14,562 nt of DNA. It comes from a virus. The stretch is from the UHGV virus genome UHGV-0177146. The stretch is one strand, 5' to 3'. The position numbers and the translations under genes are program-made. Below the pieces are notes generated by a model, which worked only from the letters and a program-made list of their open reading frames with translations, was not told the origin of the DNA and made no database searches. Positions 1,986 to 6,166 of the stretch are shown here, in pieces (positions within the stretch are counted from its first letter, which is position 1; each line of letters starts with the position of its first letter).

Positions 1986-2579
1986 TTAAATCAGCGTTTC
2001 AAGAACTGTTTTTAATGATGACTTGGTTGTCTGATAAAAATGAGTAAATCCATTGTTATTATCGAATACCTGCATCATGATATCATCACCCTTGATTGGG
2101 TACACTCGGATATCATAGTGAAACCCATTAAAGACAGCAGAACCATTACAGAATGAGCTAAAGTCATTCACTGAGATATACTCTTCATGACCTGTGATTT
2201 TTATACAAACACCTTTACTCGGTCTCTTAGGGTTGATATCCTCCATCACAGACATACTCTTTCCACCAAGAGATAACATAGTGACCACTTTACGGTTCTT
2301 CTGTTTAAAGTACATTTTAACTTTCTGCAAAGTGTCTTCATAGAACGGATAAGACCTTTCTACAAAGATTCCTTCAAGTGGCTCTTTACCATTTTCAACT
2401 TCTCGGTTATGTCGTACTGCAAAGATAATTTGTTCGAACCAGTCAAGATTTTCTTCGGAGAGTGCTTCCCGAATATCACTCCAGTCAAGGACTAGGTAGT
2501 TGCCTTCAACATCTTTTAAGTTATCTTTTTCCATAGCTATCACACCATTATCGTAAAACTTGGTAAGCTGGAACTGCAA
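1986..2579 (-). CDS. hypothetical protein (197 aa; start may be the internal ATG at 2534)
   Basis: Long ORF. The first ATG (2579) has no RBS and overlaps the upstream gene by 32 nt; the ATG at 2534 has a weak GGTG RBS and lies 13 nt after the upstream stop. No recognisable motif. Confidence 0.6.
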   Translation of the reverse strand: MQFQLTKFYDNGVIAMEKDNLKDVEGNYLVLDWSDIREALSEENLDWFEQIIFAVRHNREVENGKEPLEGIFVERSYPFYEDTLQKVKMYFKQKNRKVVTMLSLGGKSMSVMEDINPKRPSKGVCIKITGHEEYISVNDFSSFCNGSAVFNGFHYDIRVYPIKGDDIMMQVFDNNNGFTHFYQTTKSSLKTVLETLI

Positions 2580-3012
2580 ACTTGTTGCCGTTGTTCTTAA
2601 TGAGGTCTTCTTCTGTTACTAAGAATGTAATCCCACACAAGTGTGTGTAGTGGCTATCATACTCAAATATTTTAAGTAAGTATTTACCATCGTGATAAAC
2701 AGATTCTACTACACCTTTTGCAACAATCTTTCCAGTCTTGAAGTCTTTAAGACGGTATACATTACCAACTTTGGGGACTGTTTTCACTTCAGGTTCTTTT
2801 AGCTTCTCACCAGCTTCTACATCACCTAGTAAGTGAGAACTTTCAAACGCTACATATTGCATATAGGCTTCTGAGCATTCCCAGATAAAACAATGTACAA
2901 GAACCTTAGCAGCATGTCTTGAGCAATTTAACTTATCACAAATTTCTTTGTACATTTCATCTTTAGTTGAGTTGTCAAGCATTGCTTTTTGAACGACTTC
3001 TTTAATTTTCAT
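2548..3012 (-). CDS. hypothetical protein (154 aa), Cys-containing
   Basis: ATG at 3012 with GAAGG RBS upstream; several Cys (CDKLNCS, VHCFIWEC, HLCG) that might bind metal. Function unknown. Confidence 0.6.
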   Translation of the reverse strand: MKIKEVVQKAMLDNSTKDEMYKEICDKLNCSRHAAKVLVHCFIWECSEAYMQYVAFESSHLLGDVEAGEKLKEPEVKTVPKVGNVYRLKDFKTGKIVAKGVVESVYHDGKYLLKIFEYDSHYTHLCGITFLVTEEDLIKNNGNKFAVPAYQVLR

Positions 3013-3065
3013 TTCGCTACCTTCTAAGTTTCTACGAAGGGGCTATCAAGTAACCCCTCAAGCTA

Positions 3066-3290
3066 CTACTCAGACTTTTCAGTCTTCTTATCGGATTTCT
3101 TACTAGTCTTCTTCTCAGCTTTCTGCTCAGGCTCCTTCTCAGAAGTTGCCTTGATAACCATATCAAGAAGCTCTGATAAGTCACTCTTCAGCAGAGTAAC
3201 AGGCTGCTCATTGTAGAAGTTTTTGTCAAGATAAACTTTGAACTCTTCAATAGAAGGAAATCCAAAAATTGGTACAGGTGTCTTAATCAT
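3066..3290 (-). CDS. hypothetical protein (74 aa) with Lys/Glu-rich C-terminal tail
   Basis: ATG at 3290 with GGAGA RBS; ends TAG; low-complexity KKTSKKSDKKTEKSE tail. Confidence 0.55.
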   Translation of the reverse strand: MIKTPVPIFGFPSIEEFKVYLDKNFYNEQPVTLLKSDLSELLDMVIKATSEKEPEQKAEKKTSKKSDKKTEKSE

Positions 3291-3366
3291 TACTTAGTTT
3301 CTCCATAGGCATCTTTTAAGATTGCCTTGTTAATCATTTCAGCGATTGCAAAACGAACACATACAG

Positions 3367-3870
3367 CTATAATTGTAGGTTGCATTCTTTACTTACCTCT
3401 TCAAGTTTAACCTCAGAGTCCTTAAGTCGTTTCTTATGAACTCTGAATCTTAGTAGTGAGATGATGATACCAGCTAAAGGAACAGCATACAAGTACCAAA
3501 CATCATATACCTTTGCGGTAATCTGTGTAATGGTCAAGTCTTGAACTATGTAACTGATTGCTGATACGGCTAGTAATGTTGCTAAGAAGAAAACCAGTAT
3601 CATAGCAATATTCAGACAACTTCTGGCATGGTGTTCATGCTTAATGCACTTATTCTTCTCTTCAACAACCCTGTTGTAGTCATTTGTAAAGTCTCTGTAG
3701 AAAGCTTTCAAGTATTCTTGACTGTAGCCTTCAAAGCAACCTGTACCGTACCAATAATCACCACCAAAATGAGCTATAATACCGGTATCACCATTTGGTT
3801 TGGTTACTCTCAAAGAAGTATGATGACGAGTATCCTGATAATCTATCTTATATCTTTCTTCGTAAATCAT
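3367..3870 (-). CDS. hypothetical membrane protein (soluble N-terminal part plus two predicted TM helices)
   Basis: The ORF track starts at a GTG (3900) directly after a stop with no RBS. The ATG at 3870 has a GAGAGGGG RBS and forms an ATGA overlap with the stop of the upstream gene, so 3870 is preferred. Hydrophobic stretches LNIAMILVFFLATLLAVSAISYIV and VWYLYAVPLAGIIISLL. Confidence 0.6.
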   Translation of the reverse strand: MIYEERYKIDYQDTRHHTSLRVTKPNGDTGIIAHFGGDYWYGTGCFEGYSQEYLKAFYRDFTNDYNRVVEEKNKCIKHEHHARSCLNIAMILVFFLATLLAVSAISYIVQDLTITQITAKVYDVWYLYAVPLAGIIISLLRFRVHKKRLKDSEVKLEEVSKECNLQL

Positions 3871-4143: not shown

Positions 4144-4168
4144 ATCATAGTTAACATTGTATATTCGG

Positions 4169-4750
4169 TCAAGAGTATTTTTTAGGCAGTAATGCGCTAC
4201 GTTTGTTACTCTCTTCACTCAACAGTGCGATAAAATCGTCACCTTTACCTTTCCACGGGCTGAATGAAGGGATATGTTCACGAATAGCTTCAATCACTGT
4301 CTTCAATGCTGTATTTTTCATCCACCAGTCAGAATCTGCTGATGCAACTACGTAGTATCCACCTTCATCAGTCAGAATTGGCTCTGAGATACATGGAGAA
4401 ATCAAAGTGGTAATGATTGAACCATTGTTCATGTAGTATGTACGCTTAATAACCTTTTCAAGAAGCTTGTGGAGGTCACCAAACAGTGTGACAAGCTCTT
4501 TGTGGTCAATGTCTTTTTCGAGGCTTGCTCGATACTTCAAAAGTGCAGCATCAACTTCTCTGTCATTAAACTTGAAGTACTGGACTTCCTCAACAAGACA
4601 AACACTGATGTTGTTAACATTCATAGTCAACTTGCAAACTTTTGCAGGAGAGTTGATGCTCGGTTGAAAAAGTGCAACACAACCTTCAATGTTCCCAAAA
4701 TGTTGAACTAGTGTTACTTGTGGGGTAATATTCTGTTGCTCTTCGGACAT
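4169..4750 (-). CDS. hypothetical protein (193 aa)
   Basis: ATG at 4750 with GAGGA RBS about 7 nt upstream; TAATG overlap with the upstream gene; ends TGA. Confidence 0.6.
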   Translation of the reverse strand: MSEEQQNITPQVTLVQHFGNIEGCVALFQPSINSPAKVCKLTMNVNNISVCLVEEVQYFKFNDREVDAALLKYRASLEKDIDHKELVTLFGDLHKLLEKVIKRTYYMNNGSIITTLISPCISEPILTDEGGYYVVASADSDWWMKNTALKTVIEAIREHIPSFSPWKGKGDDFIALLSEESNKRSALLPKKYS

Positions 4751-5094
4751 TACAGTTTCCTCATTAAATACTTTTTAAGTTGTGTGTTAGGTTTCTCAAA
4801 AACTTCTACAGAAGATATCTTGACAGATTCACCACGCATACCTGTATGTTTGAATATATAGTACTCTAACATCCCTATGTACTTTGCTGGTAAGTCATGT
4901 TTGACATACACCGTTACAGAATCTTCAAATTCAACAACCTTTGTACCGTCTTTGTAGTTGAACTCTTTAGGATGGTTATAGTTGTCGATATCATACATTA
5001 AAAAGAGTCTTTTCCGTTGCATGTCAAGCTTATTGGTTAAAGACTCTTTAATATCTGAGAAGTTTTTGTACACTATGACATGGAGCTTACTCAT
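4750..5094 (-). CDS. hypothetical protein (114 aa)
   Basis: ORF in an operon-like array; ATG at 5094; 8-nt overlap with the upstream gene. Confidence 0.6.
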   Translation of the reverse strand: MSKLHVIVYKNFSDIKESLTNKLDMQRKRLFLMYDIDNYNHPKEFNYKDGTKVVEFEDSVTVYVKHDLPAKYIGMLEYYIFKHTGMRGESVKISSVEVFEKPNTQLKKYLMRKL

Positions 5095-5380
5095 CGTTAA
5101 ACTCTCTGACGAAGAAATAGTTGACTTTATTATTACCTACCATAAGGTCAAAGCAGGTATTCTCAAAAGGTTTGTTGTAGGCATCATATGAGGTGTATGT
5201 ATCAGCTACTTGTTTAGTGTTAAGCTTTTTACTTGATGGATTTAAGAGGCCACCATACAGTTTCTTGATAGCCTCTTCTACAACAGACCAGATAATTTCG
5301 TCAGTAATTTCTTCGTACAGGTCAAGTTCACGCTCTAGTGAGAAGTCACAAATAGGGAAAATAACCTGTACTTTACTCAT
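5087..5380 (-). CDS. hypothetical protein (97 aa), acidic
   Basis: ATG at 5380 in a TAATG overlap with the upstream gene stop. Confidence 0.55.
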   Translation of the reverse strand: MSKVQVIFPICDFSLERELDLYEEITDEIIWSVVEEAIKKLYGGLLNPSSKKLNTKQVADTYTSYDAYNKPFENTCFDLMVGNNKVNYFFVREFNDE

Positions 5381-5775
5381 TAGCGAATGACCTGTGTTAC
5401 CTGAATAGCTTCAGTTACTGACAAATCACCAACCGTTTCTTCTTTGACGAAGGTGAAGGTAAGCTCAATAGGTTCTTGCTCTTCTTGCTCAACAGGAATA
5501 CCGTTAAGCTCGTCAAAGATTGATTGAGTTGTCCAGTCTTCTCCACCATCTGGGTAGTGGATTGCGTAAAGAGGGAACTCTAAATTATACCAAGCGAAAA
5601 CAGGGCAACCATCTGCATCATCTCGGCATCTGTGGAGGTATGTGTTTGTACCTTCAAAATGCAAATGGAGATTACCATTCTTCTCAAAGAGAAGAGCATC
5701 TTTCAGGTCTAGTTCCTCATTTTCGCTGTAACGGCTGACATCAACTTTAACGTGAATATGACTGTTATTATTCAT
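5380..5775 (-). CDS. hypothetical protein (131 aa)
   Basis: ATG at 5775 with GAGAGG RBS; 8-nt overlap with the upstream gene. Confidence 0.6.
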   Translation of the reverse strand: MNNNSHIHVKVDVSRYSENEELDLKDALLFEKNGNLHLHFEGTNTYLHRCRDDADGCPVFAWYNLEFPLYAIHYPDGGEDWTTQSIFDELNGIPVEQEEQEPIELTFTFVKEETVGDLSVTEAIQVTQVIR

Positions 5776-6166
5776 AAAAACCTCTCTCTGCTTGTTCGAT
5801 TTTCGCTTTTAGAACTTCACACCGTTCAATGTGATATCTGGCTTCATGTTCATGTGTCGCCAAAGTTCTTTCAAGAATGGTTTTATAGTAACCTGCAAGT
5901 TGCTCTCTTGTCAATGGGTTCTCTGAAATAATATCGAGACCACTTTCACCCAGAGTATTAAATTGTCCATGCTCATTTACATGGTAAGTCTCAAATTTGA
6001 ATAAACCGTTATTAGCAGCCTCAATAGGTGAGAGTTCAACCAACTCAACGGTGAACATTGTATGCACTCTATCACCAACTGTAACAATGTTACTTCCAAT
6101 GATGCGTACAAGCGAACCATTACGAGTGTACTTAAAAGTCCCAAAGTCACTAGCCCAAAGTTTCAT
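5768..6166 (-). CDS. hypothetical protein (132 aa)
   Basis: ATG at 6166 with strong AAGGAG RBS 8 nt upstream; first gene after the terminator at 6181-6208. Confidence 0.6.
   Translation of the reverse strand: MKLWASDFGTFKYTRNGSLVRIIGSNIVTVGDRVHTMFTVELVELSPIEAANNGLFKFETYHVNEHGQFNTLGESGLDIISENPLTREQLAGYYKTILERTLATHEHEARYHIERCEVLKAKIEQAERGFYE

Follow-up and report, generated by a model that had tools for sequence, protein, structure and literature searches.

The window analysed here is a 14,562-nucleotide stretch of the UHGV virus genome UHGV-0177146, and the subject of this analysis is a block of small, tightly coupled genes on its minus strand at positions 1986-6166. The block is best read, from its sequence, as two operons, g1-g5 and g6-g10. 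The interpretation that we favour, and that we regard as somewhat probable, is that both operons are driven by the host polymerase and bounded by terminators, and that they encode conserved non-virion accessory proteins with pre-late or middle expression, which would act as conditionally useful host-adaptation factors in the infected cell. When the whole window was compared by megablast with GenBank phage records, 350 records matched, and in 183 of these a single match with 90-95% identity spanned at least 80% of the window; nearly all of them are Felixounavirus phages of Escherichia, Salmonella, and Shigella. These matches identify the window as a piece of a Felix O1-like myophage genome (Felixounavirus, Escherichia coli/Salmonella).

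The block comprises ten open reading frames (ORFs) of 72-197 amino acids and one ORF of 31 amino acids (g7b), listed here with their counterparts in phages Felix O1 and Bas63:

6166-5768, minus strand: g1, 132 amino acids, with a strong AAGGAG ribosome-binding site; Felix O1 gp34, Bas63 gp122
5775-5380, minus strand: g2, 131 amino acids; Felix O1 gp33, Bas63 gp121
5380-5087, minus strand: g3, 97 amino acids; Felix O1 gp32, Bas63 gp120
5094-4750, minus strand: g4, 114 amino acids; Felix O1 gp31, Bas63 gp119
4750-4169, minus strand: g5, 193 amino acids; Felix O1 gp30, Bas63 gp118
4100 or 4085-3867, minus strand: g6, 77 or 72 amino acids; Felix O1 gp28, Bas63 gp117
3870-3367, minus strand: g7, 167 amino acids; Felix O1 gp27, Bas63 gp116
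3385-3290, minus strand: g7b, 31 amino acids; Bas63 gp115
3290-3066, minus strand: g8, 74 amino acids; Felix O1 gp26, Bas63 gp114
3012-2548, minus strand: g9, 154 amino acids; Felix O1 gp25, Bas63 gp113
2579 (TTG) or 2534 (ATG)-1986, minus strand: g10, 197 or 182 amino acids; Felix O1 gp24, Bas63 gp112

Within g1-g5, successive genes overlap by 8, 1 (TAATG), 8, and 1 (TAATG) nucleotides, and from g6 through g7 and g7b to g8 they overlap by 4 (ATGA), 19, and 1 (TAATG) nucleotides. A gap of 68 nucleotides separates g5 from g6, and one of 53 nucleotides separates g8 from g9. The last junction depends on the start codon assigned to g10: with the TTG codon it is a 32-nucleotide overlap with g9, and with the ATG codon at 2534 it is a 13-nucleotide gap. 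The ATG start is favoured because cross-genus conservation begins near it. For g6, the alignment to phrog_4459 begins at residue 6, and in relatives the annotated protein starts with MKKL, which corresponds to the 72-residue form. Overlaps between genes are also kept in the annotations of the related phages Mordin and SUSP1, and within each operon these overlaps of 1-19 nucleotides would couple the genes translationally. An original prediction, made from the sequence alone, had described eleven tightly coupled genes of 74-197 amino acids between two terminators. The coupling was borne out, with overlaps of 1, 4, 8, and 19 nucleotides (32 only with the TTG start of g10), and the count of eleven stands when the conserved g7b is added to the ten larger ORFs. 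The size range does not stand, as the eleventh gene has 31 amino acids and g6 has 72 or 77.

The division into two operons is based on the following transcription signals in and around the block, for which free energies (dG) are given where a hairpin is involved:

6208-6191 (hairpin; element 6181-6208), minus strand: terminator after the endolysin gene, forming the upstream block boundary; dG -12.9 kcal/mol, followed by a T run; Felix O1 t35
4143-4120 (hairpin; element 4110-4143), minus strand: internal terminator at the end of g1-g5; dG -16.3 kcal/mol, followed by a T run; Felix O1 t29
1977-1951 (hairpin; element 1941-1977), minus strand: terminator ending the block; dG -15.8 kcal/mol, followed by a T run
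6212-6240, minus strand: sigma70-like promoter candidate upstream of g1, TTGACA-17-TATCTT
4144-4172, minus strand: putative sigma70-type promoter upstream of g6, TTGACC-17-TATGAT, with its -10 hexamer directly against the terminator hairpin
3025-3062, minus strand: GGGG...CCCC hairpin between g8 and g9; dG -12.1 kcal/mol, no T run

All three rho-independent terminators fit the definition, namely a GC-rich hairpin followed by a T run, and all three are kept across genera. Two of them, t29 and t35, are listed in the Felix O1 genome paper (PMC3185647). The t35 stem has the same sequence in six of seven phages of three genera, with one loop base different in HY02, and the terminator at 1977-1951 shows compensating changes in SUSP1 and Mordin. 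Both of the bounding terminators that had been predicted were thus found, and a third one inside the block, at 4143-4120, had gone unmentioned.

Each operon would be headed by a host-type (sigma70) promoter set directly against the terminator of the preceding unit. For the promoter upstream of g6, the sequences CTTGAC and TATGATGGG are invariant in the seven phages of three genera, and the sequence of the 17-18-nucleotide spacer between them varies; invariant hexamers with a varying spacer form, we infer, the pattern expected of a promoter in use. Transcription from this site would start approximately 7 nucleotides after the -10 hexamer, inside the 5' arm of the hairpin. Transcripts initiated there would then lack the terminator, and transcripts arriving from upstream would stop at it. 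The candidate upstream of g1 shares sequence with the 3' end of the endolysin gene and is separated from the terminator hairpin by 3 nucleotides. Its -35 hexamer is kept in all seven phages despite its coding position, and SUSP1 and Mordin have TAGATT, at equal spacing, where Felixounavirus has the -10 hexamer TATCTT. The same layout of promoter against terminator recurs upstream of Bas63 gene 0081 (Bas63 55438-55490). The recurring design has a sigma70-like -10 hexamer 0-3 nucleotides upstream of a T-run hairpin, after which come the ribosome-binding site and the start codon of the gene that follows; initiation in such a design would fall inside the terminator stem. In a scan of the whole Bas63 genome, the sigma70-like sites that lie outside long ORFs and precede gene starts were almost all located outside the structural module. 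The hairpin between g8 and g9 is kept with shifted sequence in SUSP1 and Mordin and is annotated as a terminator in wV8; it is possibly an attenuator or an element for RNA stability or processing. No RNA family was returned when the block and the gap next to it were compared with Rfam.

Conservation of the block extends well beyond the genus. All eleven genes occur in the same order in HY02, EF202P1, Bas63, Felix O1, and wV8 (Felixounavirus), in SUSP1 (Suspvirus), and in Mordin (Mooglevirus); protein identities are 81-100% inside Felixounavirus and 47-79% when genera are compared. With the concatenated products as a tblastn query, 262 phage records matched, 237 of them at a coverage of at least 80%. 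Ratios of nonsynonymous to synonymous substitution rates (dN/dS; Nei-Gojobori method, against four relatives) range from 0.03 to 0.26 for the ten genes g1-g9 and g7b, a range that leaves out g10, for which protein identity among relatives is 51-93%. From these low ratios, the ORFs are judged to be genuine coding genes under purifying selection.

Natural variation is concentrated at particular positions. Two intergenic junctions, one upstream of g6 and the other upstream of g9, are insertion hot spots. At the former, relatives carry extra genes such as Felix O1 gene 29 (181 amino acids, between the internal terminator and g6), SUSP1 agp118, and Mordin_99; at the latter, extra genes include wV8 gene 30, its counterpart in Alf5, and Mordin_104/105. 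A Pfam scan of these inserted genes found no domain above threshold. Losses are also observed: g9 is absent from Salmonella phage SWJM-02, and g3 in Alf5 has an internal deletion that leaves 70 amino acids. The furthest-reaching members of the block are the g4-g5 pair, g5 having the widest distribution of all; the pair is found in the Ounavirinae phage Wc4 of Pectobacterium and in LPML1, a divergent Ounavirinae phage whose record calls it a Listeria phage; by fold, gp098 of Erwinia phage MM7 is also a relative of g5. In LPML1, a lysozyme gene is followed by small genes and then by the g5 homologue, and in Wc4 (1877-3436) two genes of the TerD-domain family (tellurite resistance/stress) lie just upstream of the g4-g5 homologues.

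The block is already known: a 2010 paper describes it, a genome-wide knockout screen of 2024 covered it, and more than 250 genomes carry its annotation. It corresponds to Felix O1 gp24-34, part of a leftward transcription unit spanning genes 40-24 (Whichard et al. 2010, PMC3185647), and to bas63_0112-0122 of Bas63 (MZ501086). In both phages, the orthologues stand in the same order, with 81-100% protein identity and with t29 and t35 in common. Relative to Felix O1 the window lacks gene 29, and relative to wV8 and Alf5 it lacks the gene inserted between g8 and g9; otherwise only point differences are seen. The instance in the window is ordinary, and nothing new in kind and no new mechanism emerged from the sequence analysis.

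The literature supplies two of the elements on which the favoured reading relies, namely expression timing and conditional essentiality. By reverse transcription PCR (RT-PCR) in Felix O1, transcripts for gp24, 25, 26, 28, 29, 32, 33, and 34 were maximal at 25 min ("middle"), as was that of the lysin gp35 (PMC3185647). In the same series, the maximum fell at 5 min for gp31 and at 60 min for gp30; there is no entry for gp27 (PMC3185647). The block products are not part of the Felix O1 virion proteome (PMC3185647). In agreement, a cryo-electron microscopy (cryo-EM) study of Bas63 found that the sole virion protein encoded outside the structural module is the capsid decoration protein, more than 10 kb away. 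We take this protein to be the Hoc-like Hex-Dec, the product of the immunoglobulin (Ig)-domain gene bas63_0124, two genes upstream of the block. More recently, the PhageMaP knockout screen described the 66-80 kb region of Bas63 as small hypothetical genes of "varying essentiality" (PMC11482910). Two of the block genes, gp114 (g8) and gp116 (g7), were more essential on the E. coli strain S17-1, and gp114 was loosely compared to XseB by the authors (PMC11482910). For the 12 defence systems analysed, no counter or trigger named in the text is among gp112-122, and the neighbouring endolysin gp123 was reported to trigger retron Ec67 (PMC11482910). The possibility that a block gene is the trigger of DRT7 was rejected, as the trigger in Bas63 is gene 035, which lies outside the block.

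The products themselves are lineage-restricted and have few detectable relatives. Scans of the ten larger products against Pfam, NCBIfam, and PADLOC gave nothing above the curated thresholds, and in PHROGs every match is labelled "unknown function", with each product in its own PHROG. The earlier statement that no recognised family is represented was thus confirmed; likewise, homology searches turned up no housekeeping function, and the genes are conserved in relatives, both of which agree with the original prediction. A lipoprotein (o-spanin) signal was sought in all products and was not found, and searches of PDB sequences with g1, g2, g9, and g10 gave nothing meaningful. Word-indexed database searches with g5, g7, and g10 returned only hypothetical or unnamed relatives, the named ones mostly from Ounavirinae.

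Among the products of the first operon, g1 belongs to phrog_4266 (unknown function), with 59% identity in SUSP1 and Mordin and dN/dS of 0.05-0.23. The g2 product is very acidic, with an isoelectric point (pI) of 4.4 and a net charge of -18, and its dN/dS is 0.05-0.24. Many GenBank orthologues of g2 carry the label "D-alanyl-D-alanine carboxypeptidase", which is unsupported, as no match to peptidase S11, S13, or M15 (VanY) was obtained in Pfam, NCBIfam, or PDB sequences; the label appears to be a propagated error that originated with Salmonella phage BPS17W1. The g3 product is acidic (pI 4.5), and that of g4 is basic (pI 9.3). For g5, an exhaustive HMMER search over 1.84 billion representatives recovered only 15 clusters. 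An assignment of g5 to Pfam DUF5092 was rejected, as the match to a partial stretch scores 20.9 bits (E = 3.9e-4), below the 27-bit gathering threshold. The AlphaFold model of g5 is alpha/beta, with a predicted local distance difference test score (pLDDT) of 65. Compared with PDB folds it gave no match (best E = 0.056, template modelling score (TM-score) of at most 0.18), and in a viral structure library it matched only Ounavirinae orthologues, including the MM7 protein.

In the second operon, g6 encodes a basic protein (pI 9.7) with a match to DUF7565 below threshold. The g7 product had been predicted to be a membrane protein with two transmembrane (TM) helices, and the two lines of evidence available agree with this. 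Hydropathy gives two TM segments at approximately 86-108 and 124-146, and the AlphaFold model (pLDDT 60, predicted template modelling score (pTM) 0.29) has a three-stranded sheet followed by long helices at 51-110 and 126-162; the model is too uncertain for a fold search. The protein is predicted to reside in the inner membrane: approximately 80 N-terminal residues in the cytoplasm would precede the two TM helices, the C-terminal tail is charged, and the positive-inside rule suggests a topology with both termini inside. An invariant motif, WxGTGCFEGY..YLKAFYRDF, is also present. The protein was found in 253 phage records, all of which are by name Felixounavirus, Suspvirus, or Mooglevirus, except for one Staphylococcus-labelled record. 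The micro-protein g7b, hydrophobic in its N-terminal half, is annotated in EF202P1, Bas63, Alf5, SUSP1, and Mordin; its identity is 100% within Felixounavirus and 63-79% in Suspvirus/Mooglevirus, with dN/dS of approximately 0.16-0.19. The g8 product ends in a C-terminal tail rich in Lys, Glu, and Ser. In g9, a zinc site (C-x4-C ... C-x4-C) was ruled out, as SUSP1 or Mordin carries a different residue at two of the four Cys positions. Finally, g10 has 106 homologues, all hypothetical or unnamed, the named ones mostly from Ounavirinae phages; four further PHROGs of unknown function match its N-terminal region as well, and its matches to CsoS2 were dismissed because they cover a short low-complexity stretch.

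According to the favoured reading, the block would form the distal portion of a leftward transcription unit, "gene 40 to 24", in the genome of a Felix O1-like myophage. The host RNA polymerase would make its products in pre-late or middle infection. On laboratory hosts the phage could do without them or would gain mildly from them, and on particular hosts it would need them; they would not be core components of replication, morphogenesis, or lysis. Gene coupling, terminators, conservation, putative promoters and their recurring design, timing, the S17-1 effect of gp114 and gp116, natural gene gain and loss, and the non-virion nature of the products all speak for this reading. Gene structures, overlaps, terminators, conservation, selection, the lack of detectable homology, and absence from published virion protein lists are direct observations. 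For promoter use, membrane topology, and the role in host adaptation, the reading goes a step further, and these are what we infer.

Several points weigh against this reading. Two late-type genes, those for the capsid decoration protein and the endolysin, lie immediately upstream of the block in the same orientation, and therefore late expression by read-through is possible. The promoter candidate upstream of g1 has a weak -10 hexamer and a -35 hexamer inside coding sequence, and a start 7 nucleotides past this -10 hexamer would retain most of the terminator stem. The high cross-genus conservation is nearer to the behaviour of core genes than to that of accessory genes. The RT-PCR data are semi-quantitative and place the neighbours gp31 and gp30 in conflicting classes (5 versus 60 min); as these two genes are translationally coupled and yet differently timed, the assay must be coarse. 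In a literature search, no Felixounavirus transcriptome was found. In addition, no biochemical function can be assigned to any of the products, and "host adaptation" denotes a class and not a mechanism.

The original prediction had called the region an early host-takeover or anti-defence region, and this interpretation is partly supported. If the block were an immediate-early takeover cassette, the host RNA polymerase would transcribe it in the first minutes, and its products would shut off or redirect host functions. Putative sigma70-type promoters at the head of both operons, small coupled proteins without homologues of known function, and the 5-min maximum of Felix O1 gp31 (g4) fit this scenario. 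However, the label "early" does not agree with the published timing, in which eight of the ten tested Felix O1 block genes share the 25-min maximum of the lysin, one is maximal at 60 min, and a single gene is left at 5 min. Moreover, two late-type genes precede the block on its own strand, and a region of more typical early appearance exists elsewhere, in Felix O1 genes 14-23 and Bas63 genes 0098-0111, where small genes stand singly, each behind a near-consensus promoter of its own, and promoter sequences are repeated. An early cassette is thus distinctly unlikely. The early and middle regions of phage T4 contain many small, coupled, lineage-restricted ORFs, which are transcribed by the host RNA polymerase and are mostly dispensable on laboratory hosts. 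The block may resemble such clusters of small non-essential genes in large lytic phages, but no relation in sequence or fold to any T4 protein was found, the sole trace being the sub-threshold DUF5092 match of g5, and the reported peak of the block is "middle" rather than immediate-early.

An anti-defence island, whose products inhibit host immunity, for example with acidic g2 and g3 as DNA mimics and with g7, g7b, and g8 directed against an S17-1-specific barrier, also appears unlikely, though less so. The strong acidity of g2 and g3, the extra genes at two hot spots in relatives, and the interactions of the neighbouring gp123 (endolysin) and gp130 with defence systems are consistent with it, as is the greater essentiality of Bas63 gp114 and gp116, seen only on S17-1, a strain that carries integrated RP4 transfer genes. 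On the other hand, none of the products matches a known family in Pfam, PHROGs, NCBIfam, or PADLOC, the last of which covers defence proteins, and in the PhageMaP text no block gene appears as a counter or trigger for any of the 12 systems. A cross-genus identity of 47-74% and low dN/dS also speak against the typical patchy distribution, although two junctions are insertion hot spots and g9 can be lost; the block is strongly conserved and not hypervariable. Beyond the S17-1 phenotype of two genes, nothing positive backs the label "anti-defence".

Lysis control, with g7 (together with g7b) as a holin, an antiholin, or a regulator of lysis timing, is highly improbable. The block adjoins the endolysin gene on its downstream side, its expression peak coincides with that of the lysin, and g7 resembles two-TM holins and other small phage inner-membrane proteins in its TM helices, its charged C-terminal tail, and a direction of transcription shared with the endolysin. 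LPML1 likewise combines a lysozyme, small genes, and a g5 homologue. Furthermore, no holin-lysin cassette was found in Felix O1, for which gp79, 116, 118, 119, and 131 are listed as holin candidates (PMC3185647). These other candidates themselves argue against a holin in the block, as do the spanins annotated elsewhere in the Bas63 genome. A terminator stands between the lysin and the block, and g7 lies in the second operon, 2.3 kb downstream, with two terminators and five genes between it and the lysin. Among two-TM holins, an N-terminal domain of 80 residues is unusual. It is in this large conserved soluble domain, and in the lack of any holin family match, that g7 differs from them. In Wc4, the g4-g5 pair follows TerD-domain genes and not a lysin.

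A more far-reaching proposal, which we consider tentative and rather unlikely, is that the g6-g8 sub-operon forms a new membrane-anchored module for host range or counter-defence and that, separately, g4-g5 is an ancient second effector pair across Ounavirinae. The module would consist of basic g6, two-TM g7 with a cytoplasmic domain bearing the WxGTGCFEGY..YLKAFYRDF motif, the micro-protein g7b, and g8 with its Lys/Glu-rich tail. Together, they would overcome a barrier that certain E. coli strains possess, such as one tied to the RP4/Mu elements of S17-1.

Outside the block, the window contains the following features:

56-304: small gene
305-1985: stretch of 1.7 kb without ORFs
6682-6218, minus strand: endolysin gene
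7815-6682, minus strand: Ig-repeat protein gene
Beyond the Ig-repeat gene: a few further minus-strand genes, then a divergent promoter region
Past the divergent promoter region, plus strand: DUF5681 gene
9894-11309, plus strand: Ro60-like gene, 471 amino acids; relatives' records say RNA-binding or DUF2828
11475-14473: 19 tRNA genes, directly after the Ro60-like gene

The 377-amino-acid product of the Ig-repeat gene (6682-7815, minus strand) has an N-terminal domain and three near-identical Ig-like repeats, and it corresponds to Bas63 gene 0124. The length of this gene is 1134 nucleotides in the window and in HY02, 885 in Felix O1 and EF202P1, and 1383 in Bas63, consistent with the variable number of Ig repeats reported in the Bas63 cryo-EM study. 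Further along, the hairpin AGGGGC-ATCA-GCCCCT at 8207-8222 scores as a terminator on both strands and is equivalent to Felix O1 t38; it follows a gene for 196 amino acids (8821-8231). The 471-amino-acid protein encoded at 9894-11309 corresponds to Bas63 gp130, which is structurally similar to Ro60 according to the PhageMaP authors (PMC11482910). This protein was reported to counter the ppl defence system, and a link to Y-RNA-like tRNA genes was proposed (PMC11482910).

Directly downstream of the block, the stretch at 305-1985 has no ORF of at least 40 amino acids and a GC content of 0.32-0.36. It contains 30 TGTTA motifs; their density of 17.8 per kb compares with 1.9 per kb for the remainder of the window. 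Most of them point the same way and follow one another at intervals of 10-11 bp or multiples thereof, and the repeats are thus helically phased; inverted TAACA copies occur at 789-815, and CTATAAAG/CTTTATAG motifs at 515-617 and 980-1020. Both the ORF-free gap and the TGTTA density (14-18 per kb) are kept in seven phages of three genera, including HY02, Bas63, Felix O1, wV8, SUSP1, and Mordin. No Rfam family matches the stretch, and the Felix O1 paper does not describe it (PMC3185647). By its pattern it looks like a candidate protein-binding array or replication origin, and we judge that this array deserves more attention than the gene block itself.

Phages of the Felix O1 type are widely used in Salmonella and E. 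coli diagnostics, biocontrol, and therapy, and approximately a third of their genes, those of the block included, are without an assigned function. The two-operon layout, the S17-1 effect within g6-g8, and the variable g9 and junctions offer a starting point for targeted deletions in these phages.

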